Sequence record: PZ166176.1
Length of the DNA stretch: 64,000 bases
Reading direction: 5' to 3' (one strand)
From: a phage
The position numbers and the translations under genes were made by a program. Numbering within the stretch: position 1 is the stretch's first letter; every line of letters begins with the position of its first letter. Under the pieces are notes generated by a model. That model was not told the origin of the DNA. It did no database searches and saw only the letters and a program-made list of their open reading frames with translations. This document shows, in pieces, positions 2,638 to 29,077 of this stretch.

Positions 2638-3110
2638 TGGCAGATTTAACTACGATCAAAGTTTCTGATCTTACACAAACAACCTCTGTATCTGATACAG
2701 ATTTCTTTGTAACAGATCAGGCTGGAATAACAAAGAAGACTTCTTTGAAAGTGCTGTTGAGTGGTGCAGGGGTAACTAGAAACCGTTTAAATGCACGTGG
2801 AACAGTAACTAGCACCTTGGCATTAGATATTAGTTCAGCAGAATATTTTTCGGCAACTTTATCTTCTGCAACATGCACAATTAGTTTTACTAATATTCCA
2901 GTAGCAACGAATGCAGTTTTAAACTTTACTTTAGCTTTGCGTCAAGGAAGTGGCGCAAATAAAGTCGTATGGCCTTCTTCTGTAAAATGGAGTTTTGGTC
3001 GTTCCCCAGTTTTGAGTTATCGTCAAGGTGCAACAGACACTTTTGAGTTTATCAGTTATGATAATGGTGCAACTTGGACAGGTAGCTTAGTTTTAGCAGG
3101 AGTTATTTAA
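2637..3110 (+). CDS. hypothetical virion protein
   Basis: 157 aa ORF with ATGA-type overlap inside the baseplate operon. Confidence 0.45.
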   Translation: MADLTTIKVSDLTQTTSVSDTDFFVTDQAGITKKTSLKVLLSGAGVTRNRLNARGTVTSTLALDISSAEYFSATLSSATCTISFTNIPVATNAVLNFTLALRQGSGANKVVWPSSVKWSFGRSPVLSYRQGATDTFEFISYDNGATWTGSLVLAGVI

Positions 3111-5986: not shown

Positions 5987-5994
5987 GGGGTAAA

Positions 5995-8148: not shown

Positions 8149-8156
8149 GAGTAAAA

Positions 8157-10103: not shown

Positions 10104-10106
10104 AAA

Positions 10107-10133
10107 CAACCCCGCTTCGGCGGGGGGTTCTTA
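10107..10133 (+). terminator. rho-independent terminator candidate
   Basis: CCCCGC-TTCG-GCGGGG hairpin followed by TTCTT, just after the stop at 10103. Confidence 0.55.
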
Positions 10134-10152
10134 GAAAAACAAAGAGGTACTT

Positions 10153-10464
10153 ATGAACGAGATGTTCTCACAAGGTGGTAAAGGTTCAACTGGAATCTTA
10201 ACCAATAAACAAGCAGTAGCCCGTCACTTTGGAGTTAAACAATCTGAGGTTGTTTACTTCTCAGTTGGTGCACTGCTTGATGGGTACAAAGTTATCTATG
10301 ATAAGGAGACGCAAAGGGCGTATTCCCTACCTGCTGATATTGCCCCAGGTACTATTGCCATTAGTCTTAGTGCTGCCGGAGTATTAGTTCACTCTGCGGG
10401 TAATGTGGACCTTGGGGAATTAGCTGTATCTCGTGATTTAAAAAGTAATGAGAACGCACTATGA
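10153..10464 (+). CDS. hypothetical protein
   Basis: 103 aa ORF with RBS, between tailspike and baseplate genes. Confidence 0.4.
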   Translation: MNEMFSQGGKGSTGILTNKQAVARHFGVKQSEVVYFSVGALLDGYKVIYDKETQRAYSLPADIAPGTIAISLSAAGVLVHSAGNVDLGELAVSRDLKSNENAL

Positions 10465-10703
10465 GAAAATTTTTAATAGGTATGTTCTGTACATATCCTG
10501 ATAATAAAGTCAGTTCTACGAAAGTCTGGAACGCTGTAGGCATGTCGGTTATGACAGGCATGTTTATCTTTTTAGGAATAGAAAAAGAAATTCCTGAATG
10601 GATGGGTTGGGCTTTTGTTTTCATGATAACTCCTTCTCGCCTCATGAAAAATCTTATTGATTTACGCTGGGGCAGATCACAATCTACCAAAGAGGATGAC
10701 TAA
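10461..10703 (+). CDS. hypothetical small membrane protein
   Basis: 80 aa with a hydrophobic segment (GMSVMTGMFIFLGI); ATGA overlap with the upstream ORF. Confidence 0.4.
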   Translation: MRKFLIGMFCTYPDNKVSSTKVWNAVGMSVMTGMFIFLGIEKEIPEWMGWAFVFMITPSRLMKNLIDLRWGRSQSTKEDD

Positions 10704-12190
10704 TGGACGAATATGGTTTGACAGATGCGGGATTTGTAATCCCGACTTTTGACGATGTTTTAAACAACTACATGACAGCAGTAAAAAACACATTTGGTGC
10801 AGATGCAGCCACTTCGGAAGATACTGTGATCGGACAACTGTTTAGAATAATTGCATACACAGATTACACATTGTGGGAAGGTATGCAAGGTGTTTACAAT
10901 ACTCAAACACTGGATGGTGCAGAAGGTATTTATCTTGATGAAATCTTTTCTAAACGCGGTTTCTATCGAGCAGGGGCAGCAGCAAGTACAGGTTATGCAT
11001 ATGTTAAGAGTAATAACAAAGCAGCTTGGACTTATGAGCTAGGCACGGATATTTACTTCAACTCTGATAGTGATATGAACTACTATGTTAGCACACCAAC
11101 TATGTTGAATGCTAAGATTGCAGCTTATCAAATCTCTCGTGCTAATGCAACTGCTACAGGTGTTCCAAATATTACTTTTTATGCACAAAGTGCGGTGGAT
11201 GGAGGACTAAACAGTAAAACACTTGCACCTGGTTCTTCTACATTTATAACCGATCTTGAAACTTTTATCAAGGCGAATTTAACAGAAGCTGATCGTAGTC
11301 TTGTATTTTCTGATTCAGGTAACTTATCAATTGGTTTTACTTCTTTAACCAGCGATACTCCAGTGGGACTAGTAACTCCTATCAAATTTTATGCCAGTGT
11401 TCCAGTTGGAACCAAATGGAGTGAAATTCCAGTAGTTGCAGCAGAGAAAGGATACAATCCTGTTGGTGTGGAGTCTATTACAGGGATATCTTCTACCTTT
11501 ACAGGTTATCTTGACAGTGGTAACTTTTATTCATTTTCTCCTGGTCGGGATGTTGAGACAGATGCAGAATTCCGCTCTCGTTTCAATGACAACGTTGATG
11601 AAGCTAACGCAGGGACACGAGCAGCTATTGTGAAAGCTCTGTTACTTACAGATGGTGTTACTAAGGTGAAGATTTATGATAACCCTACGTTACATGATCA
11701 AGAACACGCTCCAGCTATGACTTTCCAGACTATAGTTTATGGTGGCAGTGCAGAAGAAATTGCAAATGTTATCTATAAAACCAAACCAATCAACACTTTG
11801 ACACACGGAACAACTAACATAACAGTTACAACAGAAGATGGAGGACAAGAAATTATTCGCTTCTCTCCTGGTGCTTCTGCTATGTATTCCGTAAAACTTG
11901 TTTATCAAACTGTCAACGGAACAACTTTAAGTGGAACAGAAAAACAAAACATCGTAGAAGCTTTACAAAACCTGCAAGCTTACTTTGAGTTAGGTTCTTC
12001 AGTAACGAACGATCAAATCAAAGGTGTTATTTATGCAGCACTTGCTTTTGGACGCTTGACTTCTCTTCGTGTTTATGTTAAACTTAATACTGAGGATGAC
12101 AGTAAATATACAGAGAATAATATAGTTCCTGCTTATAATGTTGTCCCTTCTTTTGACCTTGATAACATTTCTTACGAGTATGGAGTGTAA
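10703..12190 (+). CDS. baseplate wedge protein, gpJ / gp6-like
   Basis: 495 aa; N-terminal region and gene order (followed by a gpI-like protein and a fibre) resemble the baseplate J family. Confidence 0.45.
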   Translation: MDEYGLTDAGFVIPTFDDVLNNYMTAVKNTFGADAATSEDTVIGQLFRIIAYTDYTLWEGMQGVYNTQTLDGAEGIYLDEIFSKRGFYRAGAAASTGYAYVKSNNKAAWTYELGTDIYFNSDSDMNYYVSTPTMLNAKIAAYQISRANATATGVPNITFYAQSAVDGGLNSKTLAPGSSTFITDLETFIKANLTEADRSLVFSDSGNLSIGFTSLTSDTPVGLVTPIKFYASVPVGTKWSEIPVVAAEKGYNPVGVESITGISSTFTGYLDSGNFYSFSPGRDVETDAEFRSRFNDNVDEANAGTRAAIVKALLLTDGVTKVKIYDNPTLHDQEHAPAMTFQTIVYGGSAEEIANVIYKTKPINTLTHGTTNITVTTEDGGQEIIRFSPGASAMYSVKLVYQTVNGTTLSGTEKQNIVEALQNLQAYFELGSSVTNDQIKGVIYAALAFGRLTSLRVYVKLNTEDDSKYTENNIVPAYNVVPSFDLDNISYEYGV

Positions 12191-12192
12191 AA

Positions 12193-12822
12193 ATGGCAGT
12201 GAGTGTTGACCATGTAACAACTTGGGCCAGTATCAATGAAGATGTTAAAAACCTTCTGATTGAAGATTTTAAATCTTCTCCTAACATTGTCAAGCTCCTC
12301 TACATCGTATCCAGTGAAAAGCAAAAGATAGATCAGGCAATGATCTATCTTGCTAAACACCGCTTGATCTCTACAGCCACAGGCAAATACCTAGATATTC
12401 TAGGGGAAGAAATGGGGATCGAACGTAATGGCTCTGATGATGAAGAGTATAGAACAATATTAAAAATCAGGGCTTACCGCGTAGCCTCATCGGGGACTCG
12501 TGGTGACATAATTGATATCTTCGCCCGTTTCACAGGAACAGAGCGTGAAACGCTTAATACTTACGTAGGTTTGAATAAAACCTTTGATGTGTTTTTCTAC
12601 AACCTGTGTCTTCAATCTGATCAAGCTTTAGAGCAGTTGCTAAGTGTTTTCCCTATTATTAGTAGCTACCGTCTTGGAGCAAAAGCAGGATCAGCTTTTG
12701 GTTTTAGTTCTTATTATGCTACCAAACCGCCTCATGGTATTGGTGGTTTAGGTTCCCTGTACATGGAATCTACTGGGGATGAAACAGGACGCATGTGTAC
12801 GCTTCTCAAGCAAATAGATTAA
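12193..12822 (+). CDS. baseplate/tail protein, P2 gpI-like
   Basis: 209 aa; GKYLDILGEEMGIERNGSDDEEYRTILKIRAYRVASSGT resembles the conserved core of tail protein I family; sits directly after the J-like gene. Confidence 0.4.
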   Translation: MAVSVDHVTTWASINEDVKNLLIEDFKSSPNIVKLLYIVSSEKQKIDQAMIYLAKHRLISTATGKYLDILGEEMGIERNGSDDEEYRTILKIRAYRVASSGTRGDIIDIFARFTGTERETLNTYVGLNKTFDVFFYNLCLQSDQALEQLLSVFPIISSYRLGAKAGSAFGFSSYYATKPPHGIGGLGSLYMESTGDETGRMCTLLKQID

Positions 12823-12831
12823 GGAGTTTAA

Positions 12832-13893
12832 ATGGCGAAGCCAATATATTATCCTGACTGGGCTACACAAACTGTAACGCTCCCAGGAACTTTAAACACA
12901 AACAAAATTAGACCTAAAGAAACCATCCGCACAGTTGGTATGGATTATGGTCAAATCATGACTTGCGAAGAAATGAACTGGATTCTTAATAATATCGGTT
13001 TATGGATTCGCTATTTGGTGGATGACTTTCTTCCAACTTTGCCTGATACTTACTTGCCTTTAGTGGGAACTAAGATTACAATGGCTGGTGACGCTACTGG
13101 TGAGGCTACTTGGAATGGTAACAAAGAAGTTACTTTATCTATCCAGGTTCAAGATAACAGTCATAATCACTTGTCGGCAAACATTACAGATGCCACTAGT
13201 TCAACAGTAACACCAAACGTGCTGGTAAAACGTGATGCGGGTGGTGCTATTTATGGTGGCGATGTTTATGTTAACGGTACTTCCACAACAGATCCTGCAA
13301 CACTGTTCTTCAAAAACTTTGCAGGACAAACAAATGGTGAGATTTCTGCCGAGTATCAAAGCGGAGGTCAGCTTTATATTTATCGTAGAAATCCTAGCAC
13401 AGGTAGTGTATCGGCAGGTGTTCGTTTATATGATGCAGGTTATGTTCTAATAGATAATCCAAGATCAAACAGTGGACAAGATACTTCTAACGGAAATGCT
13501 TTAGTTCGTTTAGATTATCTGAACTCTCGTTTGACTTCCCTTCAGAACACATTGCAGACGAATATTAACACTGTTCAAAATAACTTGAATAATGTTAACA
13601 GCAACCTTTCTTCCCGTATAAACAATGTAGAAAGTAATCATCAAAGTCAGATTACAAATAACTACAATTATGCTAACGGAACCTTTGTAAGAGATATTCG
13701 TTATACTAGCCAAGGTGTGTATTATCCACCAGGGAACGAGGTTTCTTGGACTTATATCTGTTCTTCTGGTTATGTTCTTTCTGGTATTATCGTACAGGAA
13801 ACAGGACGTAGTTCTGCGGATAACATCGGTGGGGTTTATTTCAAACGCCTCCAGCGCAACGTTAACGGAAACTGGTACGATATCGGAGGCTAG
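12832..13893 (+). CDS. tail fibre protein with Asn-rich coiled-coil
   Basis: 353 aa; heptad-like segment LDYLNSRLTSLQNTLQTNINTVQNNLNNVNSNLSSRINNVESN. Confidence 0.5.
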   Translation: MAKPIYYPDWATQTVTLPGTLNTNKIRPKETIRTVGMDYGQIMTCEEMNWILNNIGLWIRYLVDDFLPTLPDTYLPLVGTKITMAGDATGEATWNGNKEVTLSIQVQDNSHNHLSANITDATSSTVTPNVLVKRDAGGAIYGGDVYVNGTSTTDPATLFFKNFAGQTNGEISAEYQSGGQLYIYRRNPSTGSVSAGVRLYDAGYVLIDNPRSNSGQDTSNGNALVRLDYLNSRLTSLQNTLQTNINTVQNNLNNVNSNLSSRINNVESNHQSQITNNYNYANGTFVRDIRYTSQGVYYPPGNEVSWTYICSSGYVLSGIIVQETGRSSADNIGGVYFKRLQRNVNGNWYDIGG

Positions 13894-13894
13894 A

Positions 13895-14440
13895 ATGAGA
13901 TTTACAAATTTTAAAAGATATATTCCCGAAGATCCCGAACTAAAAGAATTGGTAGAAGTAGAGAACATTCTTTTTCTTCGTTGCGATCAAGGTTACGATT
14001 GGTATGATTTACGTAGCACAGAATTCAATAACGATAAAATGAAAGTCGTTTTTGACGATCAAAATCGTATTGTGTTTTGGAATACTGATCCTACACTACT
14101 TTGCCCTGAAGATCTTTCTATAGCACAAGTAGACTTTAATATAGATACTTTTGAGGATATTAGGAACAAGGTTCTGGATTTAGAAACCTTAACTCTTAAG
14201 GATAAAGAGTATTCCCGTGAAGAGTTGATGACACAAGCTAGTGCAAAAATTCGCTCTTTACAAGAAACAGCGGTAGCACTTATAACACCTTTACAGTATG
14301 CTAAAGATTTAGAAATGGCTACTGAAGACGAATTAGCTTATCTTAAAAATCTTCAAGTTTATGTAGTTAAACTAAATCGTGTTCCGCTTCAAAAAGACTA
14401 TCCTTACGCTATAGATTGGCCTACATTACCGACAGAATAA
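13895..14440 (+). CDS. putative tail fibre assembly protein / chaperone
   Basis: Start moved to the ATG right after the upstream stop (track start 13715 overlaps the fibre gene); position and size fit a Tfa-like chaperone. Confidence 0.4.
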   Translation: MRFTNFKRYIPEDPELKELVEVENILFLRCDQGYDWYDLRSTEFNNDKMKVVFDDQNRIVFWNTDPTLLCPEDLSIAQVDFNIDTFEDIRNKVLDLETLTLKDKEYSREELMTQASAKIRSLQETAVALITPLQYAKDLEMATEDELAYLKNLQVYVVKLNRVPLQKDYPYAIDWPTLPTE

Positions 14441-14449
14441 GGGATCACT

Positions 14450-14785
14450 ATGGAATTTCAAGAAGCATGGGGACTTGCAAAGGATGCAATAATCCCTTTA
14501 ATCGGAGTCATCTGGTTCTTTTTCAAACAAAAAATGGATAAATTCGGCTCTGATCTTGAGGAAATGGAGGAGAAAAGTCGAGAGCTAGAGAAGAAGTTGG
14601 TCTTTGTTGAATCAACTTATGCAACTAAAGCCGAACTTACCCAGATGCTAAATCAAATTAACTCTACATTAATGGCAAATAATAACACCCTTGAGCAAAA
14701 AATTGAAAAGATTATGGACCTCAAGAATGCGACTATCCAAATGATGCTAGATGACATAGTTAAACGTACACAGAATAAGGGGTAA
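14450..14785 (+). CDS. membrane-anchored coiled-coil protein
   Basis: 111 aa; N-terminal hydrophobic helix (AIIPLIGVIWFFF) then a charged coiled-coil. Confidence 0.4.
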   Translation: MEFQEAWGLAKDAIIPLIGVIWFFFKQKMDKFGSDLEEMEEKSRELEKKLVFVESTYATKAELTQMLNQINSTLMANNNTLEQKIEKIMDLKNATIQMMLDDIVKRTQNKG

Positions 14786-14788
14786 TTA

Positions 14789-17700
14789 ATGGCAACATTC
14801 CCAACATATCCAGCAACGTCTCTCGAACAGGGCGTAGACCTGGTTATTTTCTCATCTAACCAACTCCATGATGTTATTAATGGAAGTGCTACAGAGAGTA
14901 TTGAAACAGAATCAGGGTTGATACCAACCCTGAGAAAAGCCCTTGTTGACAACTTTTTCTTTAAAAGCCCATTGGATTGGGCGCAAGGCACAAACGAAAC
15001 AGTTTTTAACCAACTTCGTTATTTCCAGAATGGAGTATTGAGCGGTTATTACTATGCCCCTAACGCTACATTGGTTAACCCAATCCCTATGCAAGGGACT
15101 CCAGTAGGAGATAACAACTGGGTATTGTGGGGACTGAAGACAGAACAATTGGCAACAGAAGTCACCCCTTGGGTATATTCTGGTGCAACTGGTTATGAAA
15201 CAGTAATTAGTCCTCCTTACATCTTTGATAGTGCTATTGTTACGATCAATGGTGTTATTCAGGTTCTGGGGGAAGCTTTCCGTATAGAAGACAGTAAGAT
15301 CATCTTATCTGAACCTTTGGGACACGATCCTGCAACAGGACTGCCAAACAAGCTTTTTGCTTATATTGGTAAAATCGTAGCTTCAGCAGATACAGATCCT
15401 AATCTAGAGAACCGTCTTGTTAGTTTAGAAACAAAAACGGAAGAACTAACAGAAAGCATGGATAAAGTCCCTCTGCAAGCTATTGCTCGTAAGTATGGTT
15501 TGTTAGATGATGAGGTGGCTTACGCAACAGCAGGTCAATCGTTAACAGGGATTAAAGCTCTGTATGATCCGGTAGCACAGTCTTCCTACACATTACCTCC
15601 TAACATCACAGGAACTTTAACATCCTTATCTGTTTCTGGAGTAATGACTTATTCTGGAGGATCTGTAGACCTTTCTGCACTGGCTGTTGAGCGTGGACAG
15701 TTTGTTCATTTGCCTACAAGCTTTGGTAATAACGTAACTCTGACAGCTAAAAATCAGACGATTGGACGTGGTGCTGGTCGTTATCGTTGGGCTGGAAGTT
15801 TACCAAAAAGTATTTTGGCCTCTGATACATTGGAGACAAGCGGAGGATTAGGTCCAAATGCATGGGTTCTGACTAATACAGAAGGACTGTTAACCCCTCG
15901 TGGTGGAACATACAACGATCTATTCGATGTTGTCTACTTGTCAGAATTTGCTAACAATACAACTACCTATACCACACCAGAAGCAGCTTTCCAGGCGGCA
16001 CTGTTAGCAGCAAAAGCTTCGAAAAGCAAGATTCTCGATGCTTACGGTTGCGACATGACTTTCACGACAAGCTCTTTTGATATTCAAGATATCACTTTGC
16101 GTGGTGGTGTGTTCCGTGGTCAACGCGACTATCGTGTGCAGAATGCTACAGTAGAAGGCACAACTTTCCGTAACTCTCGTGTTATGTATTGGGGTGGTGC
16201 TGTGCGCATGTTCGATTGTTTGTGGGACGGTGCTCCTCGCGCAGGTCAAGTTGGTAGCTTGGTATTCCAAGGCAACCCAATATCAGGTACTTTTGAAATT
16301 GATAATTGTACTTTTAAAAACGGGTTATATGGCATTCTTCAACAAGGAACAGGGGAACCAGTAACACGCGGTGTCTTCCGTAACCTTACCTTCATGGACA
16401 TGCAAGGTGATGCAATAGAACTGAACGTCATCAATAAACATTATGACGATGGTTGTGTGATTGAGAATATTTACCTGTCTAATATCGATGGGACTAACGC
16501 TCCTATTCCTCTGTCCAACTGGGGTATCGGTATCGGTGTAGCTGGTAAAGGACCATATGGTTACGGAATCCCTGATGATCAATATTGTAAGAACATTACA
16601 ATTCGTAACGTTTTTGCAAAACGTTGTCGTCAGATTGTCCACGTAGAAGTTGGTCGTAATATCTCTATCGAAAACATTCATGGCGATCCAGATCAAACCG
16701 TATCTGTTGGGACAGGTTTGGCAACTGGCGCAGTTGTAATGTATGGAAGTAAAGACTTTACGATTGATGGTGTTTATGGAGAGCCTAAAACAGACGGTAG
16801 CACACTTGCAAGTAATATCCGTATGATTTACTTGGAGTGGGGAACTAACGCAGTTCTGGATGAAGAGGGTAATCCGGTAGTTCCGGCACAGGGCAGACCT
16901 TCAAACCCATGCTTTAACTATTCTGTTCGTAACATTCACACCAAAACTGGGCGTGTTTTTGCGGGAGTTTCCGCTGGGCCAGGTTATGAAAACAGAGTTA
17001 GCTTTGAAAATATTCGTTGCGCTGCCTTGCAGTTGTTCGGTATAGCTTCTTGGCTTTCAATGTCTAACATCACCTGTAATATCTTCGATTGTGTTGGTCA
17101 ACCTGAATCTGGTCCAGGGACATTTTATGATGGATTCTTCCGTAGAGAAAAATCTGTTCTTGAAATGGTTAACGTAAACTGTTACCCAGATGGCAAGACG
17201 ATGGTTACTGGTCGTCCACAGTGGAGCCGTTGCCGTTACTCGGATATTCATCGTGTCAACTGTAATGTTGAAGCTAATATGTATACCAATATCGCAGGTG
17301 GTATTGGAGCTATTGTAGGGACAACGGGCAAAGTTTATTACTTAGAGCCTAATCCTAGTCGAAACATTGATGGAATGCATTTCCCAACAGGGAAAGAGTT
17401 TGACAAAGGGGATATGATAGTCAAGGCGGATAATACGTTCTTCCTTGTAACAACAAGTGGGGCATATATTCCAGATATCCCAGCTTTCGGTATTCGAGCT
17501 ACACAGGCAGGAGATACCTTCCTGACACAGAACTTGACTCCTAACGGGACAGCAACAAATGCTTCTTGGTTGTATCATTACCCTCTGTCAGCAGGGACAC
17601 GTATCCGTATTCCTGGCGCTGGTGTAGGTGGAGCAGATTTGGACACAGTTATTACTCGTGCACCTTATCAAGATAATGATACGTGGACTAACCCAGTTAA

Positions 17701-17842
17701 AATAGACATTGCAGATCCAATTGTAACGCCTACAAGTGCTGGAGTTAGAATTAAAACCATACCTAATGATTCCAGTAATGTTTCTGTAGGTAATACTGCG
17801 GTTATTCGCCCAACGCCAGTAGTAGATGTGCCAACAACCTAA
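14789..17842 (+). CDS. tailspike protein with beta-helix (candidate polysaccharide depolymerase)
   Basis: 1017 aa; shares the SDTLETSGGLGPNAWV motif with the other fibre genes; long Gly/Asn/Val-rich repeats typical of pectate-lyase-like folds. Confidence 0.6.
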   Translation: MATFPTYPATSLEQGVDLVIFSSNQLHDVINGSATESIETESGLIPTLRKALVDNFFFKSPLDWAQGTNETVFNQLRYFQNGVLSGYYYAPNATLVNPIPMQGTPVGDNNWVLWGLKTEQLATEVTPWVYSGATGYETVISPPYIFDSAIVTINGVIQVLGEAFRIEDSKIILSEPLGHDPATGLPNKLFAYIGKIVASADTDPNLENRLVSLETKTEELTESMDKVPLQAIARKYGLLDDEVAYATAGQSLTGIKALYDPVAQSSYTLPPNITGTLTSLSVSGVMTYSGGSVDLSALAVERGQFVHLPTSFGNNVTLTAKNQTIGRGAGRYRWAGSLPKSILASDTLETSGGLGPNAWVLTNTEGLLTPRGGTYNDLFDVVYLSEFANNTTTYTTPEAAFQAALLAAKASKSKILDAYGCDMTFTTSSFDIQDITLRGGVFRGQRDYRVQNATVEGTTFRNSRVMYWGGAVRMFDCLWDGAPRAGQVGSLVFQGNPISGTFEIDNCTFKNGLYGILQQGTGEPVTRGVFRNLTFMDMQGDAIELNVINKHYDDGCVIENIYLSNIDGTNAPIPLSNWGIGIGVAGKGPYGYGIPDDQYCKNITIRNVFAKRCRQIVHVEVGRNISIENIHGDPDQTVSVGTGLATGAVVMYGSKDFTIDGVYGEPKTDGSTLASNIRMIYLEWGTNAVLDEEGNPVVPAQGRPSNPCFNYSVRNIHTKTGRVFAGVSAGPGYENRVSFENIRCAALQLFGIASWLSMSNITCNIFDCVGQPESGPGTFYDGFFRREKSVLEMVNVNCYPDGKTMVTGRPQWSRCRYSDIHRVNCNVEANMYTNIAGGIGAIVGTTGKVYYLEPNPSRNIDGMHFPTGKEFDKGDMIVKADNTFFLVTTSGAYIPDIPAFGIRATQAGDTFLTQNLTPNGTATNASWLYHYPLSAGTRIRIPGAGVGGADLDTVITRAPYQDNDTWTNPVKIDIADPIVTPTSAGVRIKTIPNDSSNVSVGNTAVIRPTPVVDVPTT

Positions 17843-17848
17843 TGGAAT

Positions 17849-17873
17849 AGAGGGGGATTCCCCCTCTTCTTCC
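17849..17873 (+). terminator. rho-independent terminator candidate
   Basis: AGAGGGGG-ATT-CCCCCTCT hairpin followed by TCTTCC, after the stop at 17842. Confidence 0.5.
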
Positions 17874-17903
17874 AATAGAATGGTCTAATGATAGGAGAGA
17901 TAA

Positions 17904-19928
17904 ATGAATTTAACAAGACCTAATAGTGCGATAGCCGATCTGGTAGAAGCTACTTATCGAAAACGTCGCAGCTTTGAGGCAGGTTTTACATTACGTAATT
18001 CCCGTGAAGTTTTGCTGTTAGCAGCAGAAGGGAATTATTACCAATGGAAAGGAACTTTTCCTAAAGTTGTTCCAGCAAACTCTACGCCAGCCACCACAGG
18101 TGGTATTTCTTCCCTTGCATGGCAAAGTGTTGGGACCGCTGATGATATAGCAATTATCAATGCCAAGTTTACGGCAATGCAGCAACAGATTGATGATCTG
18201 TCGGAAACAATACCTGAAGCTGGTAAATCGGCTTATCAGATCGCACTTGATAATGGTTTTGTTGGAACAGAAGCACAATGGCTTGCTTCTTTGAAAGGGG
18301 ATACTGGTGCTCAACTTAATATTAAAGGATCATTAGCAAACACTAGTGAACTACCATCCACAGGTAACGTTGCAGGGGATGGTTATATCGTAGGTGATGT
18401 AATCTACGCTTGGGATGGTTCTGTTTGGAAACTTATTTCTTCTCTTGGGCCAGAAGGTAAATCAGCTTACGAGGTATGGTTGGCAGATGGTAATACAGGA
18501 TCTGTTTATGATTTTCTTACCTCTATAAAAGGTGATAAAGGTGATGTTGGTCCTACAGGGCCACAGGGAGCACCTGGTGTTAACGCCAACGGTTTTGATT
18601 ATCGTGGGGATTTGCCTTCTACAAGTAACTTACCACAACCAAACTCTGAAAACGTAAGTCAAGCTTATTCTATCAATGGTAATCTTTATGTCTCTAATGG
18701 GACAGCTTGGGTCAACATGGGTAATATTGTTGGTCCTCAAGGTCCACAAGGTGAGGCAGGTAAAGACGGTCTTGATGGAACAGATGGAGATGAAGGGAAG
18801 TCTGCATATCAAAGTTGGCTGGATGCTGGTAATGAAGGGACAGAAGTAGATTTTATTGCCTCACTTAAAGGTCCAAAAGGAGACAAAGGTGATCAAGGAG
18901 AGCGAGGTCCACAAGGTGAACTAGGTCCACAAGGACCAGTGGGTGCAACAGGATCAGGCTTAGATATTATCGGGGTTCTGAACAGTGAAGCTGAACTTCC
19001 TCCTACCGGAGAAGTAGGTGATGCATATAAAATTAATAATGATTTATATGTTTGGGTTCAAGATGCTACGGAATGGATGAATGTTGGCAGTCTTGGAGGA
19101 ACATCAATTACAGCTAAAGGTCATGTTCCGAACAGTGAAGCTCTCCCTGTTTATAATAACTATGGCGATGCCTACTTAACTGAAGACACTAGTAATCTTT
19201 ACATCTATACCTACGATCAAGACACCAATTCCGCATCTTTTGTTGACATGGGAAGTATTAAAGGCGACAAAGGTGAAAAAGGGGATAAAGGAGATAAGGG
19301 TGATCCTGGAACAAACGGAACCAACGGTACTGATGGGACCAACGGTAAGGACGGCGCACAGTGGTTTGTAGCAACAACTAATCCAGTCGCAGGAGACGGT
19401 GTTATCAATGATTACGCCTTCAATACTACCACTGGAGCAGTGTTCAAGAAAACAGATTCTTCTACTTGGACACTTATAGGAACTCTTCCTAGTATACCAG
19501 AAGCACCTCAAGACGGCTTGACGTATGGTCGTTCTGATGGGAACTGGATTGAAATATCAGGATCAGATCCTACGGAAGCTATAACACCAACTAGAGTTAC
19601 AGCAGGTTTCATGGAACTTGAAACAACTACTGCCAACTCTGGAGCATCTTGGACCCCTTCTGGAACTTCCAATATGTATGTTGTTACAGTAACTGACGCT
19701 CTGACAGTTGGAGCATGGCCTGGTGTCACTGGCTCTACAAAGCCTAAAGCGTTTTCAGCAATGATTTATTTGATTCAAGATACAACGGGACACACGGTTA
19801 CACTAGATGCGTCTTATGGAGCACTGAATGATACAGAAATAGCAACTACTGCTAACGCAGTAACAATTTTGCAATTAACGTATCCTGGTGTGGGTAATGT
19901 CGTGGACATGGTTGTTGTAACACGATAA
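17904..19928 (+). CDS. tail fibre protein with phage tail-fibre repeats and collagen-like Gly-X-Y tracts
   Basis: 674 aa; three copies of GKSAY-x-WL-x-GN-x-G...SLKG-x-KGD and Gly-X-Y runs (GPQGPQGEAGKDGLDGTDGDEG; GDKGEKGDKGDKGDPGTNGTNGTDGTNGKDG). Confidence 0.7.
   Translation: MNLTRPNSAIADLVEATYRKRRSFEAGFTLRNSREVLLLAAEGNYYQWKGTFPKVVPANSTPATTGGISSLAWQSVGTADDIAIINAKFTAMQQQIDDLSETIPEAGKSAYQIALDNGFVGTEAQWLASLKGDTGAQLNIKGSLANTSELPSTGNVAGDGYIVGDVIYAWDGSVWKLISSLGPEGKSAYEVWLADGNTGSVYDFLTSIKGDKGDVGPTGPQGAPGVNANGFDYRGDLPSTSNLPQPNSENVSQAYSINGNLYVSNGTAWVNMGNIVGPQGPQGEAGKDGLDGTDGDEGKSAYQSWLDAGNEGTEVDFIASLKGPKGDKGDQGERGPQGELGPQGPVGATGSGLDIIGVLNSEAELPPTGEVGDAYKINNDLYVWVQDATEWMNVGSLGGTSITAKGHVPNSEALPVYNNYGDAYLTEDTSNLYIYTYDQDTNSASFVDMGSIKGDKGEKGDKGDKGDPGTNGTNGTDGTNGKDGAQWFVATTNPVAGDGVINDYAFNTTTGAVFKKTDSSTWTLIGTLPSIPEAPQDGLTYGRSDGNWIEISGSDPTEAITPTRVTAGFMELETTTANSGASWTPSGTSNMYVVTVTDALTVGAWPGVTGSTKPKAFSAMIYLIQDTTGHTVTLDASYGALNDTEIATTANAVTILQLTYPGVGNVVDMVVVTR
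18213..19352 (+). repeat. in-frame coding repeats (tail-fibre repeat units and collagen-like triplets)
   Basis: Repeated peptide units seen in the translation of 17904..19928; the antisense ORF 19217..19408 is an artefact of this repeat. Confidence 0.6.
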
Positions 19929-19930
19929 CA

Positions 19931-19958
19931 GAAGCCCCGAAAGGGGCTTTCTTTTTAT
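19931..19958 (+). terminator. rho-independent terminator
   Basis: AAGCCCC-GAAA-GGGGCTT hairpin followed by TCTTTTTAT. Confidence 0.7.
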
Positions 19959-19969
19959 GGAGGGTTTAA

Positions 19970-22642
19970 ATGTTTCCAATTCCAATATTTACTATTATGA
20001 CCAGCACTGGTGTCGTTCCTCTGCCAGCAGGTATTGTTAAAAAAGTAATTACTTTAGATTACCCAGATAATGCTGGTAATTCTAACAGCAGTTTAGCAAT
20101 TTTGCTTAATGATGGTAGATTGTTTACTCAAGGCGCAAACCTCTTTGGTGAGATTGCAGATGGAACTCGTAGTGCACGATTCAATAATTTCCACTTAGCT
20201 TCTACTGTAGTAGCGGATGTGTTTACCGCAGATCGTTGTTTTGTTATTAAAACTAACAGTGGGGGATGGCAATATTCAGGATTGACAGCAGGGTTAGTAG
20301 GATCTATAGCAGCAGGTGGTACGGATGCATGTGTAACTACTTGGACCAGCTTTCCATCTGTAATAACAGGGACTATCTCTTTAGCCAATCTTAAAGAGGT
20401 TAAGGGAGGATATAACAACACTCTCTGGTTAATGAATAGTGGTGTTCTTTATGGATCGGGTCAAAACACAGTAGGTAGTTTAGGTGCAAGCACTACTAAC
20501 GAAGTTTCTACTCCTCGTCAGATAACAAGTTCAGCAGTTGCTTTTGATGCAGGTTACAACCAATGCTCTTATGTCAACAATGTGGGAACCTTGCGTGTTT
20601 GTGGAGCTAGTAAAGGTTTAGCAGGTAATAATAACACAACAACAGCTTTTGTCAATGCCAAGATATCCGCTACTGAAACAGTGTATGTCAAAGATTACAT
20701 CAATACAGTTTCCCAGACAATAGTTGTAGGAGATACCTCCGGTGGCACGGGTACAGTAAACTACTTATATGTCAGGTCTAATACAGAAACAACCTACACT
20801 AAACTGGATACCTTTGCAGCAGGTTTCTCAACATGGAAATTTCCACCAAGCCGCCACTCTTTTTTCGTTGGGATCAACAATTCCTTGTGGGCTATTGGTA
20901 AGAACTACACTGCAAACTTAGGTTTGGGGTATGATTCTGCGAGCGGAGATCCACTCCAAGTGGGAAAACCAGTTAAACCTGAAGGAGTGGGTTCTTGGGA
21001 TATAAACAAGCTCACAAGCGTTCATACGCTGAATATGGATATTACTAACCAATTAGGTTATCAAGGAACCTTTTTCGTTTATAACGGGGATATGTATTAT
21101 TCCGGTATTTGGAAAGATGGGAAAGCCTCGTATCTGTTCAACAGTGGTCTAAATTATAATAAATTCACACCGATAGCAAGCTCTGTGATTACGGGTGATA
21201 TTCTGGCAACTGGTTTAACTACAGATTCTTTAGGAATTTGTATTGTAGGTGGAACTAAACAGTTGACACATTCTGTTAGCCCAGAAGGAGGTAAACTTTT
21301 CAATATTAAATACACTTCTTCTGCCCCTGCAAACATGACAATATCATCCACTGGTTTAATGACTTTCCATGCAGAAGGTGGTTTTGATGCAGGTATGACA
21401 GCCTTAAACGCTGAAGGAACAACTTTATCAGATACCTCTGGAGGATATGCTTCAACATTGAGTGTTTACACCCCTAGCTTATCTGCGATGGATGTAGGAA
21501 CAACACAAACAATGGTAGCAGAAATAACGCCAACAGGAGCAGCAAGCTTACCTGGTATGGTTGTTGAGTATACAACTACAGATCCTAATGTTGCTACAGT
21601 AGATCCTACAACTGGTGTAATAACTGGTGTTGGTGATGGTGGTTGTAGAATTGGTTGCACAGCTACGTATCAAGGTGTTGTTACCGCTTCTGATAGTTCT
21701 TATTTAACGGTGAACGCTGTTGCGGGAAAGGAGTTAGCTCCATCTCCGAGTAGTAGTTTAACGGTTCTAAACGGATATTTCAACCACTCGGCAGATGGGG
21801 CAATTACGTTCCCAATTTTATCGGGTACTGTCACACCAGCTAACTTTGTAGTTAAGGTGGATGACGTTGTAATACCTTCAAATAAAGTAATATTTAGAAA
21901 TAAAGCTTTCTCTACAGTGGATAGTTATCCAGCAGGAGAATATAGACTGGCTATTGAATTTGCAAGTGCTTCAGTAGTGAATAGTGTTGATGTGTCTATG
22001 GAAGCAAATCCAGATCTTTTAGAATTATGGGGCGGCAACAGAATTGGTTATTCTACAAGCCCAGCCTCACAATTCTTAAAAGGTTGTGCTAACTTAAGAC
22101 GAATAACTTCTGATTGTTTTAGTAACACATCTTACACCGGAACATCTATAAGTGGTATCTTCTCTGGCTGTACAAGTTTGACAGCTATCCCTGAAGGATT
22201 ATTCAGTGATGCTTTATTTCCTTCAATGACAACAATGTCAAGCACGTTTGAAGGTTGTACATCTTTAACATCTATTCCTTCAGATTTATTTAAGAATCTA
22301 TCAAAAGTTACAAGATATTCTTACACCTTTAAAGATTGCACCTCTCTTGCAGAAGTTCCAGCAGGAATGTTTGATAATATTCCAACGAAAGTGACCTCTT
22401 TAACAGCTACATTCCAAGGTTGTTTAGCACTTACAGATTTTAATAAAATCTTTAATGACAACCCAGGGTTAACGGTTTGTGGTCAACGTGGAGCATTATC
22501 TTCTTTCTTTAGTGGATGCACAAATCTTACAGGAACAGGAGTAACATTAACAAGCACATTAGGTGGAGCAGCTAATAGTTACCTATTCAGGTATTGCACA
22601 AAACTTTCTGATTATAACAATATTCCTTCGGGTTATAAATAA
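19970..22642 (+). CDS. distal tail fibre / receptor-binding protein with Big_2-like domain and BspA-type leucine-rich repeats
   Basis: 890 aa; Big_2-like segment (MDVGTTQTMVAEITPTGAASLPGMVVEYTTTDPNVATVDPTTGVITGVGDGG); C-terminal repeats of F-x-GCTSLT-x-IP-x-x-LF. Confidence 0.55.
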   Translation: MFPIPIFTIMTSTGVVPLPAGIVKKVITLDYPDNAGNSNSSLAILLNDGRLFTQGANLFGEIADGTRSARFNNFHLASTVVADVFTADRCFVIKTNSGGWQYSGLTAGLVGSIAAGGTDACVTTWTSFPSVITGTISLANLKEVKGGYNNTLWLMNSGVLYGSGQNTVGSLGASTTNEVSTPRQITSSAVAFDAGYNQCSYVNNVGTLRVCGASKGLAGNNNTTTAFVNAKISATETVYVKDYINTVSQTIVVGDTSGGTGTVNYLYVRSNTETTYTKLDTFAAGFSTWKFPPSRHSFFVGINNSLWAIGKNYTANLGLGYDSASGDPLQVGKPVKPEGVGSWDINKLTSVHTLNMDITNQLGYQGTFFVYNGDMYYSGIWKDGKASYLFNSGLNYNKFTPIASSVITGDILATGLTTDSLGICIVGGTKQLTHSVSPEGGKLFNIKYTSSAPANMTISSTGLMTFHAEGGFDAGMTALNAEGTTLSDTSGGYASTLSVYTPSLSAMDVGTTQTMVAEITPTGAASLPGMVVEYTTTDPNVATVDPTTGVITGVGDGGCRIGCTATYQGVVTASDSSYLTVNAVAGKELAPSPSSSLTVLNGYFNHSADGAITFPILSGTVTPANFVVKVDDVVIPSNKVIFRNKAFSTVDSYPAGEYRLAIEFASASVVNSVDVSMEANPDLLELWGGNRIGYSTSPASQFLKGCANLRRITSDCFSNTSYTGTSISGIFSGCTSLTAIPEGLFSDALFPSMTTMSSTFEGCTSLTSIPSDLFKNLSKVTRYSYTFKDCTSLAEVPAGMFDNIPTKVTSLTATFQGCLALTDFNKIFNDNPGLTVCGQRGALSSFFSGCTNLTGTGVTLTSTLGGAANSYLFRYCTKLSDYNNIPSGYK

Positions 22643-25337: not shown

Positions 25338-25505
25338 TTATACTTCTAAACGGAAAGTTTCTTTAGATACAAAATCGTATCCACCTTTTTCAAGCCAGTT
25401 ATTGTAAACCTCATCGGCTTGAGACTCTATCATAAAATACCGAGTGGTAACTTCGTCTCCGACAATACGCACAATTTTATAGCAAATCATGATACCATTT
25501 CCCAT
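25338..25505 (-). CDS. hypothetical small protein (55 aa, not in ORF track)
   Basis: My translation of the gap: MGNGIMICYKIVRIVGDEVTTRYFMIESQADEVYNNWLEKGGYDFVSKETFRLEV; GGAGGAAG RBS; TAATG overlap with the upstream gene; fills the gap exactly. Confidence 0.4.
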   Translation of the reverse strand: MGNGIMICYKIVRIVGDEVTTRYFMIESQADEVYNNWLEKGGYDFVSKETFRLEV

Positions 25506-25696
25506 TAATCTTCCTCCAGATCAATTTCATTGTAACAATGTATGCAGAAACCATCATTGTGCATATGTTGTTCATAAGACATATCTTTACCACAAGACCA
25601 ACAACGGATATCCCCATCGTCCCATTCACGTTCTTCTTCACCTTCAAATTCATCTGGTAGGTAAGGCATACCAAGACAATCTAAATCGTAATGCAT
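25505..25696 (-). CDS. small zinc-ribbon protein
   Basis: 63 aa with CWSCG...CIHC cysteine pairs; AGGAGG RBS. Confidence 0.5.
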   Translation of the reverse strand: MHYDLDCLGMPYLPDEFEGEEEREWDDGDIRCWSCGKDMSYEQHMHNDGFCIHCYNEIDLEED

Positions 25697-25744: not shown

Positions 25745-28700
25745 CTAGTGACAGGACGCCCAGGAATTACCCACATCATACCCAGCAGTAAGCTGAACAT
25801 TAAGATTGTAAAATTCTCCAGCCTTAGTAACAGCTAAAGCAGCAAGTTCACCTGCCCGACTATAAGCTGTAAACCATCCACCTTTGGGAGATTCATGAAT
25901 GTTAGCCCAAATTTGCCCTGTCTCTTTTTCCTTATTATGCTTCCATTCTTCGACTTTAGCAAGGCATTCTTTATCAATTTTCTTTTGTTCTTCAGGATCG
26001 TCTACTTTCTTCCAACCTAATGATTCAGGTGAAAACCATTTAAATTCTACAAGGTTACGAGAAACTTCAAGCTGGGCTTCATCGTGATATGCAATCATTT
26101 GTTGCACGAAATCTTTATTCTTCCAGTCATCTTTAAAGAAGTCAACACTTAGCCCTTCTTCTTCGATCATGTCATCATAAATAACCATTGCACGTTTAGC
26201 ACAGATAACCCCACCGCTTTGGAACAGAGAGTTAAGAATCGCGTGAGCAGAACGAGTAGGAACCTTACGACCGTCAATACCCAAAACATATTGTTTACCA
26301 GTCTTAACCCAGAAATCGTTTAAACGTTCTTTAAGACGCGCCAATGGGAATGCAGCTTCCCAGAAAGCATCGAACACCAATTGCCCTGTAAACTTGTCGC
26401 TACCAATTGTTTTAGCAACCTTGTCGGCTTGTGCACCATAGGTAATACCATACTTAACAGATTTAGCAGGACTACGTTCAAATTTACGTCCAATAGTTTC
26501 AGTGATACGTTTTGCCATCATTGTGTGAACATCATTAGGTTTCTCTAACAACAGAGCGTTACAATATTCGTGTGGCTCCGGCTCGTACCGCCAACAGTTT
26601 CCTGTGATGGTAATGCAGTCTTTCTGACGCATGACCCACGTACCAAGTTCTGTTTGTGGACACCAAACATCCTCTACACCCCACTCTTCAATAGTCAAAC
26701 TTTGAACAGGAATGTGAGAGCGGTTAGTCAATGTTGCCACTTTTACTTTCTGCTCTTTTGTATTGAAAGCTACAGAGATATTGCCTCCATGCACCAGGTA
26801 CGAGGCAGTTAAAGCTGCTTCAAAAAGTTCACCTGGGTTCTGCGCCCAACGCCAAACAGGTTTTTGTTTATGTTCGTGCCAGTAACCATCTGCAATCAAG
26901 AAACCTTCCAAGAAAGCTACACGCTCGGCATGAGACATATTAACTACACGTTCTACCCACGGAACATCCCATTTACCTTGTTGAACAGAAGTTAAACTAT
27001 TTACCTGATCTTGTTCCATGTTAAATGGAGCATTACAAATAATGTTATCTCCTGTGCAAAGCTCGGCAGTTGTTCTGACTTTAGGCACATAAGTATTCCC
27101 TTTACTACGGGTATTAACATACCAACGGTGATCTGCTGTTGCACGGTAAGTGTGTGATTTCCCTTTAATCTCAAACGTCTTACTATTTTTATAGAAGACC
27201 TTACCTTTTACTTTAGTCCATTCTTTCAGACCTGTTTCAGCATTGTACCCTAAAATCTCATCCCCTTCCTTCAGGTCGTGATATCCTACCCAACCTTTAC
27301 GAGTCAAAGCTTGAGCATCCATCGGCACACAGTAATGCGATTCAATTTTTGCTTCCAAAGAGTCGAAGTCGTAGCCAATCTGGAAGTATTTAGGAACTTC
27401 TACACCAAACAAGTTACGCATCTCCCATCCAAACAAAGATGTGACACGAGGAATATTAGCTACAGATCTATGCTTCATACGAGAGGTTGCAGCATCACAT
27501 GTAGCGGCTGGGGTAGGAATACGCCCATCCGCCCTTACTGCGGCTAAGAAACCTTTATCGTATTCTTGATCTTCTTCATCTTCTTCCCAATCGGCACCGC
27601 CACCTAAAATAGAGTTCCTACGATGCTTATACGTTAAGTATTCTACAATCTGTGTAGCATAAGGAAACTTCTCACCCAAAGCTTGCAGGTTAGGACAAAT
27701 TTCTTTTTCCTGACCTTTGGTAAAACACGGGTTAGTCAATACTTTAAGACCGCGACCTTTACCTTTTGCTATACGCTCTTGAATCTTCCTTTCCAGGGTT
27801 TCCGGTGTGCACTCCAGATGATCACAACGATCCTGACAAAAATTAGAAGATAGGGTTTGCTCAACGTAAGCTCGAATACCTTTCTGAAGTTCTTCCTCGC
27901 TCTTTTTAATTTTGGTGCCAGATTTAAGCGTCAAGTCTTTATCTTTATATTCAGACGGTACCCAACCTAATCCTACGAGCCAGTTTTTAATATGGGTTGT
28001 ATCGTTCAATGTTGCAGGGATGTTAGGATCACATAGAGGCTCATCTGCTGCAACTGGTAGTTTCCACTCTTTCCCCAACATAACTAACCACCAATCGCCA
28101 TCCCTCTCTTCCAAATGACCATCATGTTTCTTAGCAAAATTGATCATATGGTTAGTTGGCTCTAAGTTCTTTTTAATTTGCAACTTAGGTGGAATAAAAG
28201 CCTTAAGATAACCTTTTGTTGCTGGTTTAGGTGGCAAAATAGGCTCAACGAGTAAACGAAGACGCTCCATTTCTGCATCCAAAAAAGCAAGGTTCTCTTC
28301 TGCTTGCTTCATGTTAAAAGCAAACCCACGGTGTTCCTGGCGTGTAATAATGTCTGCTACACGTTGTTCAAGTTCAAACGGACCTTCCCATTTATCATAA
28401 TCACCCCATTCTTCCATAAGGTAATTATATACGCTCGTATTGGCTTTGTTGTCATAGATACAGTAATAAAGCATGTCCGCAGCAAAAGTCTTAAATCGAT
28501 CCTCTTCTGGAATCTCTTTACGGAAATCTATTTTTACATCACCACCTGCCTTTCGAGAAAGTGCTGCCAAACTATGTCCTGATTTGCCCTCAATCTTTCG
28601 ATCTGGGTTTAACACTTTACTCAAAATCAAGGAGTCAATAAGTTTTACCTTATTTTTGCCCCACGTGTTATATTTAACACTGTAATCTAAGCCATAAAAC

Positions 28701-29077
28701 AGTTTTGTAGCCAACCAGTCGTAGTTGATACCGTTGTGAGCCACAGCCATTTCAACCAGATATTCAGGCTTATCTTTAAAATAACCTTCATGATTAATAA
28801 AGTCTGGGAAATCTTTTAGTTGAAAATGTGTGTAATCTTGCGCCACATACTCTTTAAGAACATATGTGTATTTGCCATCTGACTCTTCATAAGGACGCCC
28901 ATCAAAGATGTATTTAGGACCATCGTGGAAAGCTACTATTTCTCCTGTTTCATGGTTCTCTAAGACAATACAGTGCATTTGAAATGTGTCTTTGAGACGA
29001 TAAGGACTAGCTAAATAATCAATAGTGTCATTATTCAACAATCCGTTTGCTTCAATATCCCATGTAAACTTACTCAC
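25745..29077 (-). CDS. family A DNA polymerase (T7/Pol I-like) interrupted by an intein
   Basis: 1110 aa; exonuclease motif WDIEANGL; motif A YDFDSLEAKIESHY; motif B RSPAKSVKYGITYG; motif C YHDEAQLE; about 245 extra residues lie between motifs A and B. Confidence 0.85.
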   Translation of the reverse strand: MSKFTWDIEANGLLNNDTIDYLASPYRLKDTFQMHCIVLENHETGEIVAFHDGPKYIFDGRPYEESDGKYTYVLKEYVAQDYTHFQLKDFPDFINHEGYFKDKPEYLVEMAVAHNGINYDWLATKLFYGLDYSVKYNTWGKNKVKLIDSLILSKVLNPDRKIEGKSGHSLAALSRKAGGDVKIDFRKEIPEEDRFKTFAADMLYYCIYDNKANTSVYNYLMEEWGDYDKWEGPFELEQRVADIITRQEHRGFAFNMKQAEENLAFLDAEMERLRLLVEPILPPKPATKGYLKAFIPPKLQIKKNLEPTNHMINFAKKHDGHLEERDGDWWLVMLGKEWKLPVAADEPLCDPNIPATLNDTTHIKNWLVGLGWVPSEYKDKDLTLKSGTKIKKSEEELQKGIRAYVEQTLSSNFCQDRCDHLECTPETLERKIQERIAKGKGRGLKVLTNPCFTKGQEKEICPNLQALGEKFPYATQIVEYLTYKHRRNSILGGGADWEEDEEDQEYDKGFLAAVRADGRIPTPAATCDAATSRMKHRSVANIPRVTSLFGWEMRNLFGVEVPKYFQIGYDFDSLEAKIESHYCVPMDAQALTRKGWVGYHDLKEGDEILGYNAETGLKEWTKVKGKVFYKNSKTFEIKGKSHTYRATADHRWYVNTRSKGNTYVPKVRTTAELCTGDNIICNAPFNMEQDQVNSLTSVQQGKWDVPWVERVVNMSHAERVAFLEGFLIADGYWHEHKQKPVWRWAQNPGELFEAALTASYLVHGGNISVAFNTKEQKVKVATLTNRSHIPVQSLTIEEWGVEDVWCPQTELGTWVMRQKDCITITGNCWRYEPEPHEYCNALLLEKPNDVHTMMAKRITETIGRKFERSPAKSVKYGITYGAQADKVAKTIGSDKFTGQLVFDAFWEAAFPLARLKERLNDFWVKTGKQYVLGIDGRKVPTRSAHAILNSLFQSGGVICAKRAMVIYDDMIEEEGLSVDFFKDDWKNKDFVQQMIAYHDEAQLEVSRNLVEFKWFSPESLGWKKVDDPEEQKKIDKECLAKVEEWKHNKEKETGQIWANIHESPKGGWFTAYSRAGELAALAVTKAGEFYNLNVQLTAGYDVGNSWASCH
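26597..27331 (-). mobile_element. intein (Hint domain with LAGLIDADG-like motif) inside the DNA polymerase gene
   Basis: Residues 583-827: begins with Cys right after motif A, block-B-like TADH, FLEGFLIADGY (LAGLIDADG-like), ends ITGN followed by Cys +1; flanking sequence restores normal motif A to motif B spacing. Confidence 0.6.

Follow-up and report, generated by a model that had tools for sequence, protein, structure and literature searches.

Does a family A DNA polymerase gene with 245 additional codons between two of its catalytic motifs encode an intein, and could such an element splice and move between phages? The question is raised by a minus-strand open reading frame (ORF) in the phage sequence record PZ166176.1, of which a stretch of 64,000 nucleotides (nt), here called the window, was analyzed. 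An earlier note on this DNA had proposed that an intein separates motifs A and B of the polymerase and had taken its endonuclease to be degenerate. From the comparisons described below, the element is very probably a genuine, splicing-competent and recently mobile intein. That it is a bona fide intein can be said with high confidence on sequence comparison and structure prediction, from which we infer that it splices.

Translation of the minus strand placed the insert, to the exact base, where the earlier note had put it (Table 1), and the features listed for it were all found in place: an initial Cys, a TADH block, a LAGLIDADG-like motif, a terminal ITGN, and a Cys at position +1. The insert reads CVPMDAQ...TADH (aa 65-68)...AFLEGFLIADGY (aa 139-150)...DVWCPQTELGTWVMRQKDCITITGN, has the C-terminal end ITITGN, and lies between GYDFDSLEAKIESHY and CWRYEPEP. 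The alleles of phages tuntematon, EP57, phAPEC8, ESCO13, and ESCO25, whose flanks are about 97-98.5% identical to those of the window, lack exactly 735 nt at the ESHY/CWRY junction. Many intein-less records as close to the gene as the full-length ones, including tuntematon, EP57, phAPEC8, Mt1B1_P17, and ESCO13, match it as two segments that together span 78% of the query (3333 - 735 nt). The 865-aa tuntematon polymerase reads IESHYCWRYEPEP across the site with the insert precisely absent, and the empty site in intein-less alleles (tuntematon, phAPEC8) is GAATCACACTAC/TGTTGGCGGTACGAG, also written GAATCACACTAC/TGTTGGCGGTAC.

The host protein has motifs A, B, and C and an above-threshold profile match, as expected of a family A DNA polymerase. 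The precursor scores 43.8 bits against Pfam DNA_pol_A (cutoff 34.3) in a match broken into two stretches, whereas the intein-less 865-aa allele scores 51 bits in one contiguous match (aa 504-764). This allele also aligns with T7 DNA polymerase across the junction (E = 1.1e-22) with motif A (D-x-x-x-L-E) and motif B (R-x-x-A-K-x-x-x-Y-G-x-x-Y-G) aligned, which places the insertion at T7 LAHF/MARFD, 12 residues past the motif A Asp and ~40 residues before motif B. Removal of the insert thus restores the spacing of the motifs, as had been predicted, and the further proposal that the intein would have to be removed to restore the polymerase is supported by all of the computational tests. The precise absence of the 735 nt from alleles ~98.5% identical, taken with their contiguous DNA_pol_A match, refutes the idea that the segment is an integral polymerase domain.

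Table 1. Coordinates in the window of the polymerase precursor, its intein, and the conserved blocks of the intein
Feature	Position	Strand	Remarks
Intein-containing family A DNA polymerase precursor ORF	25745-29077	minus	1110 aa, ~127.6 kDa; GTG start; stop 25745-25747
N-extein	27332-29077	minus	aa 1-582; ends in motif A DFDSLEAKIESHY (27332-27370)
Intein	26597-27331	minus	Precursor aa 583-827; 245 aa, ~27.9 kDa, 735 nt; Cys1...Gly244-Asn245
Block A	27317-27331	minus	Cys1-Val-Pro-Met-Asp; N-terminal nucleophile; Cys1 in 119/119 full-length family members
Block B	27122-27139	minus	T65-A-D-H68-R-W70 (TxxH and Trp B:12)
Inserted domain	26696-27025	minus	Intein aa ~103-212; one LAGLIDADG half-domain, from AlphaFold2 secondary structure
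LAGLIDADG-like motif	26882-26917	minus	AFLEGFLIADGY, aa 139-150; acidic residue D148; from hhalign against I-CreI
Block F	26624-26671	minus	DVWC224PQTELGTWVMRQ; Cys at F:4
Block G and C-terminal junction	26594-26617	minus	CITIT243-G244-N245, then Cys+1 (26594-26596)
C-extein	25748-26596	minus	aa 828-1110; begins CWRY; motif B RSPAKSVKYGITYGA (26432-26476) and HDE motif C region

The fold predicted for the insert is that of an intein. When the AlphaFold2 model of the 245 residues (pLDDT 80.3, pTM 0.78) was compared with the PDB by Foldseek, the best 50 matches were all inteins, Hedgehog Hint domains, or BIL domains, with 34 matches at E ≤ 1e-3; the best was 7qsu (E = 7.9e-9), and the strongest matches were endonuclease-containing VMA inteins. 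At the sequence level, a single-sequence search of the PDB gave weak matches, almost all of them to inteins, and a profile built from 24 trimmed family members retrieved solved inteins at E = 5.8e-5 to 8e-4. Since a word-indexed homologue search returned nine proteins, an exhaustive search was needed to reveal the family. HMMER, run exhaustively against 1.84 billion cluster representatives, found 2205 related representatives at E ≤ 1e-3 and 794 at E ≤ 1e-10. Among the best 150 representatives, 119 match the full length (residues 1-245) over 228-263 residues; every one of these has Cys1 and the terminal Asn, 118 end in Gly-Asn, and the +1 residue is Ser (52), Cys (37), or Thr (30). T65 and H68 are found in 100% of 120 aligned family sequences, W70 in 99%, W223 in 97%, and C224 in 100%; these five are invariant in the 24-member alignment A2, and T243 and N245 are invariant in the family. 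With 2205 homologues having the same junctions and exact absence of the segment in other alleles, the arrangement is not a chance pattern. The element thus shows the features of a class 1 intein: an in-frame insertion absent from close homologues, Cys1 with TxxH, Asn245 followed by Cys+1, and a Hint fold. A group I or group II intron or another RNA element was considered and rejected, as the reading frame runs through the insert without a break and the whole window has no Rfam match.

The same intein has been annotated before. PaulScherrer (Bas60, MZ501100, bas60_0044) and SD2 (PQ821640) carry an intein of the same 245 aa at the same site, with 97.6% aa and 92.1% nt identity, although the PaulScherrer host polymerase belongs to another genus, Justusliebigvirus, and its exteins are just 72-79% identical to those of the window at the nt level. 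MZ501100 is annotated with an "intein-containing DNA polymerase precursor" and an "intein" mat_peptide, and PQ821640 with an "intein-containing DNA polymerase precursor"; these labels agree with the T7 alignment, the Hint fold, and the family in placing an intein between motifs A and B. In the BASEL paper (PMC8594841), inteins are stated to have been located precisely by comparison of genomes, and two are listed for Bas60 in table S5. Because the element is annotated in a sister phage, the finding is not new; it is a correct re-discovery of a known intein. The PaulScherrer mat_peptide lies one codon off (VPMD...ITGNC; L001 2504-3238 versus 2501-3235), since TGT flanks both junctions and leaves the boundary undecided for comparative genomics; the chemistry of splicing calls for Cys1...Asn245/Cys+1. 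The element is carried by 35 GenBank records, and the other ~33 label the ORF "DNA polymerase I" or "hypothetical protein." Most carrier records thus leave unstated what the annotation should convey, namely that the 1110-aa ORF is a precursor and the mature polymerase has 865 aa. A search of the literature for phi92 together with intein found nothing.

We propose that the polymerase is translated as a 127.6-kDa precursor from which the Hint-fold element would excise itself, joining ESHY to CWRY (predicted junction peptide IESHYCWRYEPEPHEY) and yielding a 99.7-kDa active polymerase and a free 27.9-kDa intein. To judge from the invariant residues, the standard class 1 pathway is the most likely: Cys1 would undergo an N-S acyl shift helped by Thr65 and His68 of block B, the thioester would pass to Cys+1, Asn245 would cyclize, and an S-N shift would restore the peptide bond. 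The carrier phages are plaque-forming isolates, so the polymerase works. The single LAGLIDADG half-domain would sit within the Hint fold under purifying selection, and the element would have spread recently among the polymerase alleles of Phapecoctavirus and Justusliebigvirus as a currently or recently mobile selfish element.

The active site has two unusual features, of which one is Gly244 at the penultimate position (G:6), where His is canonical and not obligatory. The earlier note was correct about the residue but not in reading it as a sign of decay, since Gly stands there in 118 of the 119 full-length members and phage inteins with a penultimate Gly splice. A Gly-Asn C-terminus is the normal state of this phage-borne family. 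In phages, class 1 inteins without the penultimate His are common, and one from a mycobacteriophage, with Gly in its place, was found to splice efficiently and to become slower when this Gly was changed to His (PMC5050341). The RDF intein of mycobacteriophage Bethlehem gp51 (Kelley et al. 2016, PMC5050341), for which splicing and its slowing by Gly-to-His were demonstrated by experiment, resembles that of the window in its Cys1, its Gly-Asn end, its LAGLIDADG-type insert, and its replication-related phage host gene; it differs in belonging to another family and host protein and in having an active two-motif endonuclease, and a WCT triplet has not been reported for it.

The other unusual feature is this WCT triplet, a hallmark of class 3 inteins as defined in PMC2807308 and PMC5222942. 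In the block numbering of the latter (His B:10, Trp B:12, Cys F:4, Thr G:5, Asn G:7), W70 occupies B:12, C224 F:4, and T243 G:5, and the triplet is invariant in A2. The family therefore mixes hallmarks of class 1 (Cys1 and TxxH) and class 3 (WCT). The class 3 inteins MP-Be DnaB, Msm/Mch DnaB1, and AceL NrdHF share the Trp, Cys, and Thr at these positions and the Hint fold with the window family, but have no Cys, Ser, or Thr at position 1 and usually no Thr at B:7, both of which the window family invariantly has, together with Gly instead of His at G:6. Given the invariant Cys1, the family was not filed as class 3, for which absence of Cys, Ser, and Thr from position 1 is required.

The distribution of the intein was compared with the descent of its host gene. 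Within Phapecoctavirus, the intein differs at 0-5 of 735 nt, while the exteins of the same phages differ at 79-87 of 2598 nt (Fisher p ~2-4e-5). Intein-plus and intein-minus alleles are interleaved by extein distance: the window extein has 39 and 45 differences from those of the intein-less EP57 and tuntematon and 79-87 from those of the intein-bearing ESCO5, AV125, and ZCKP1, and the extein of AV125 is itself nearest to that of the intein-less ESCO13 (37 differences). Between Phapecoctavirus and Justusliebigvirus, nt identity is 92.1% in the intein, 72.3% in the N-extein, and 79.3% in the C-extein, with synonymous divergence of 0.44 in the intein versus 1.46 in the exteins. In the flanks, just two positions vary with the presence of the intein, the synonymous sites -3 and -6, and the intein occurs in at least two local flank haplotypes, each also found in intein-less phages. 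The low divergence of the intein, the interleaved alleles, and the flank haplotypes together indicate recent horizontal spread, apparently with co-conversion of very short tracts, which is what homing would give. The GC content of the intein (42.3%) compared with the exteins (39.8-41.2%) gives no foreign base-composition signature.

The domain inserted at aa ~103-212 is predicted to form a helix, the LAGLIDADG helix, two beta strands, a helix, and two further beta strands. Intein-type homing endonucleases have two LAGLIDADG motifs, whereas this single half-domain has one motif and one alpha-beta-beta-alpha-beta-beta unit. A model of the isolated domain (pLDDT 73) matched mostly I-CeuI, the PI-SceI endonuclease domain, WhiA, I-OnuI, I-MsoI, and I-DmoI by Foldseek, all weakly (E ≥ 0.011). 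In a likewise weak hhalign alignment (E = 0.0067, probability 5.7%, the motif alone aligned), AFLEGFLIADGY is paired with the I-CreI motif LLYLAGFVDGDGS, and D148 falls opposite the catalytic D20; Q164 may be the equivalent of I-CreI Q47. The match to Pfam LAGLIDADG_3 is below threshold (E = 0.15). The homodimeric single-motif enzymes I-CreI, I-CeuI (the best fold match of the isolated domain), and I-MsoI show the same order of elements, a single LAGLIDADG helix and then beta-beta-alpha-beta-beta. These enzymes are free-standing, intron-encoded proteins of ~160-220 aa with long DNA-binding hairpins, while the window domain has ~110 aa and short hairpins and is embedded in an intein.

The earlier note saw a single LAGLIDADG block and concluded that the endonuclease was degenerate. 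The single block is real; degeneration in the sense of lost function is doubtful in view of the conserved architecture, the conserved residues, the low dN/dS, and the signs of recent spread. An architecture of ~250 aa is the majority form of the family at 30-53% identity, being that of the 119 full-length members among the best 150 representatives. Within the insert, G149 is present in 99% and D148 in 89% of the family, and G149 and Q164 are invariant or near-invariant. Between the window and PaulScherrer, the half-domain shows 17 synonymous and 3 non-synonymous differences, a ratio of non-synonymous to synonymous divergence (dN/dS) of 0.04; the corresponding values are 0.024 for the whole intein, 0.016 for its Hint part, and 0.068 for the polymerase C-extein. 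To judge from these substitutions, the half-domain is under purifying selection and is as constrained as the Hint part and the C-extein. Some actinophage inteins are reported to have an endonuclease ORF in an alternative frame or antisense; in the window, only short plus-strand ORFs of 80 and 89 aa overlap the intein, and their translations show no obvious features.

A related intein occupies a second site in other polymerases. Those of nepoznato, ukendt, nieznany, AV126, and phiWec187 are without the window intein and carry a 324-aa relative inside motif B, 50 codons downstream of the window site (KSVKYG/.../CTYGAQ; nepoznato MN850571, L003 2501-3472), which corresponds to ~26447 in the window (KSVKYG/ITYGAQ). 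This intein at the second site, site b, belongs to the same family at 32% identity; it has CVPVD, TNDHMW, DVFC, and LTGN and shares the DVxC and TGN blocks with the window intein, but has two LAGLIDADG motifs in its 324 aa where the window intein has one in 245 aa. Its hosts are Phapecoctavirus polymerases 95.6-97% identical to the window gene at the nt level over the matched 73%. In these alleles the window site reads HYTWRYDNPDH, with Thr in place of Cys at +1, and no allele with both inteins was seen among the polymerase alleles compared. Three unannotated 146-kb records labelled as Campylobacter phages A150, A145, and A110a (MG065639, MG065645, and MG065689) match this E. coli phage polymerase and the site-b intein, which suggests that they are mislabelled or contaminant genomes.

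Across the family, host sites are more varied still. The 119 full-length members include 44 in motif B of family A polymerases, 15 at a TGRxx/SxPN motif, and 27 in small DUF6321-type proteins; the window's own site past motif A is used in three distant polymerases, and further hosts include an SU10-like portal protein. The small DUF6321-type proteins thus hold about a quarter of the full-length members, at a conserved KFDVYP/SAYANGW (metagenome sequences P0002-P0006, P0091, and P0100-P0150), and P0027 and P0040 each have two family copies just ~20 residues apart. Mini-inteins, from which the central insert is absent, occur in the same exteins (P0005 versus P0002; also P0008 and P0009). This intein family is very large, resides mostly in phages, and escapes curated profiles; in family A polymerases it targets the catalytic motifs, with several insertion sites. 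With its compact 245 aa, it might serve as a tool for protein engineering.

Several observations weigh against the reading of the element as a mobile, splicing intein. Pfam Intein_splicing reached only E = 0.0071 (16.6 bits versus a cutoff of 35.8), an NCBIfam scan of the insert gave no match, the canonical penultimate His is absent, and the class 3 signature, an invariant F:4 Cys together with Trp B:12 and Thr G:5, leaves the exact order of nucleophiles open. On mobility, the higher flank identity near the junction could partly reflect motif conservation instead of co-conversion; on the nuclease, the domain has a single LAGLIDADG motif, short predicted beta-hairpins, and weak fold matches, and the empty target site, inspected by eye and without statistics, showed only the 10-bp near-palindrome ACACT/ACTGT and no obvious palindromic symmetry, which is uninformative. 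Of 24 family members, only 1-2 matched any Hint model at E ≤ 0.01. The curated models miss the element because the family is too divergent for them, and we therefore relied on structure prediction, the exhaustive HMMER search, and the family profile against the PDB; a check against Hint profiles, as the earlier note had suggested, thus failed for the curated models and succeeded for the predicted fold and the family profile. The sub-threshold scores, and the labels "DNA polymerase I" and "hypothetical protein" that most GenBank records give to the entire ORF, would fit an integral accessory domain that is never excised, or a pseudogene with a splicing-dead intein. We find this hardly credible. 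Near-identical polymerases function without the segment, which interrupts the palm between motif A and motif B; every residue needed to catalyze splicing is present and conserved; the module also turns up in unrelated hosts (the portal and DUF6321-type proteins); and the dN/dS of the intein excludes neutral decay. The carriers are viable lytic phages. As to chemistry, ordinary class 1 splicing is favoured on the conserved residues, with Cys224 perhaps assisting or regulatory. Quite unlikely, in our view, is a class 3-like or hybrid route, in which Cys224 attacks the N-junction or relays the Cys1 thioester to Cys+1, or a redox-sensitive Cys1-Cys224 disulfide that gates maturation. The (near-)invariant WCT triplet, the missing penultimate His, the class 3 structures among the sequence and fold matches (AceL NrdHF, E = 1.7e-4; Msm DnaB), and the proposed phage origin of class 3 inteins speak for such a route, but class 3 is defined by an absent N-terminal nucleophile, and here Cys1 and TxxH are invariant; three WCT inteins with Ser1 or Cys1 were already listed in 2009 (PMC2807308), and Cys is the second commonest residue at F:4 overall.

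The role of the half-domain divides the evidence more evenly. With one half-domain, the intein could cut DNA only as a dimer, and we know of no homodimeric single-motif LAGLIDADG endonuclease among inteins, in which LAGLIDADG enzymes are monomers with two motifs. We give an even chance to a real intein whose half-domain is a catalytically dead remnant, kept only because the Hint fold depends on it for folding and splicing, the patchy distribution arising from recombination in co-infections and occasional precise loss instead of homing. The half-domain retains just one of the two motifs of known intein endonucleases, and relatives at the other polymerase site keep the full two-motif version; the mini-inteins imply that the domain is dispensable in principle, its fold matches are weak with no clear palindromic target by eye, and purifying selection could act through the splicing efficiency of an essential polymerase. 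A dead remnant is harder to square with an architecture shared by 119 of the best 150 representatives, with (near-)invariant G149, Q164, and D148, the last opposite the catalytic Asp of I-CreI, and with an intein 5-fold less diverged than its flanks within the genus and ~3-fold less at synonymous sites between genera. The intein is found with two or more local flank haplotypes and tracts of only a few nucleotides, the pattern that homing produces, though recombination during co-infection could also have spread the intein. We lean slightly, and at somewhat less than even probability, toward a half-domain with residual or dimeric nuclease function. The more specific proposal that it may work as a homodimeric homing endonuclease, and that the combination of Cys1, WCT, and Gly-Asn may mean hybrid class 1/class 3 or redox-gated splicing, is unlikely; if true, such splicing would tune the maturation of a phage replicase. 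A conserved single-motif endonuclease domain and an active site of this composition would, if confirmed, be of interest to intein specialists.

Over its full length, the polymerase gene is 97.3-98.8% identical at the nt level to those of 22 Phapecoctavirus records (Stephanstirmvirinae), including EF1-1, anhysbys, ESCO5, and ZCKP1, with the "DNA polymerase I" gene of Escherichia phage EF1-1 at 98.8%. Upstream, an N6-adenine methyltransferase gene abuts the polymerase start, with a primase/helicase gene further upstream; downstream in the window are small ORFs (25505-25696 and others) and a nucleotidyltransferase gene. In EF1-1 (PQ571289, L010 3460-3531), the closest relative, an HNH endonuclease gene lies directly downstream of the polymerase, where the window has the small ORFs. 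Examination of six-frame ORFs and large ORFs found no second copy of the intein family and no other intein in the window, which also holds no tRNA. At 3110-22642 on the plus strand, the window has a run of large tail-fibre and tail-spike genes, among them three with Tail_spike_N, a non-contractile-tail-sheath-like TIM barrel, collagen repeats, and an RCC1/Big_2 protein. This run represents a multivalent adsorption apparatus typical of phi92/phAPEC8-like phages.

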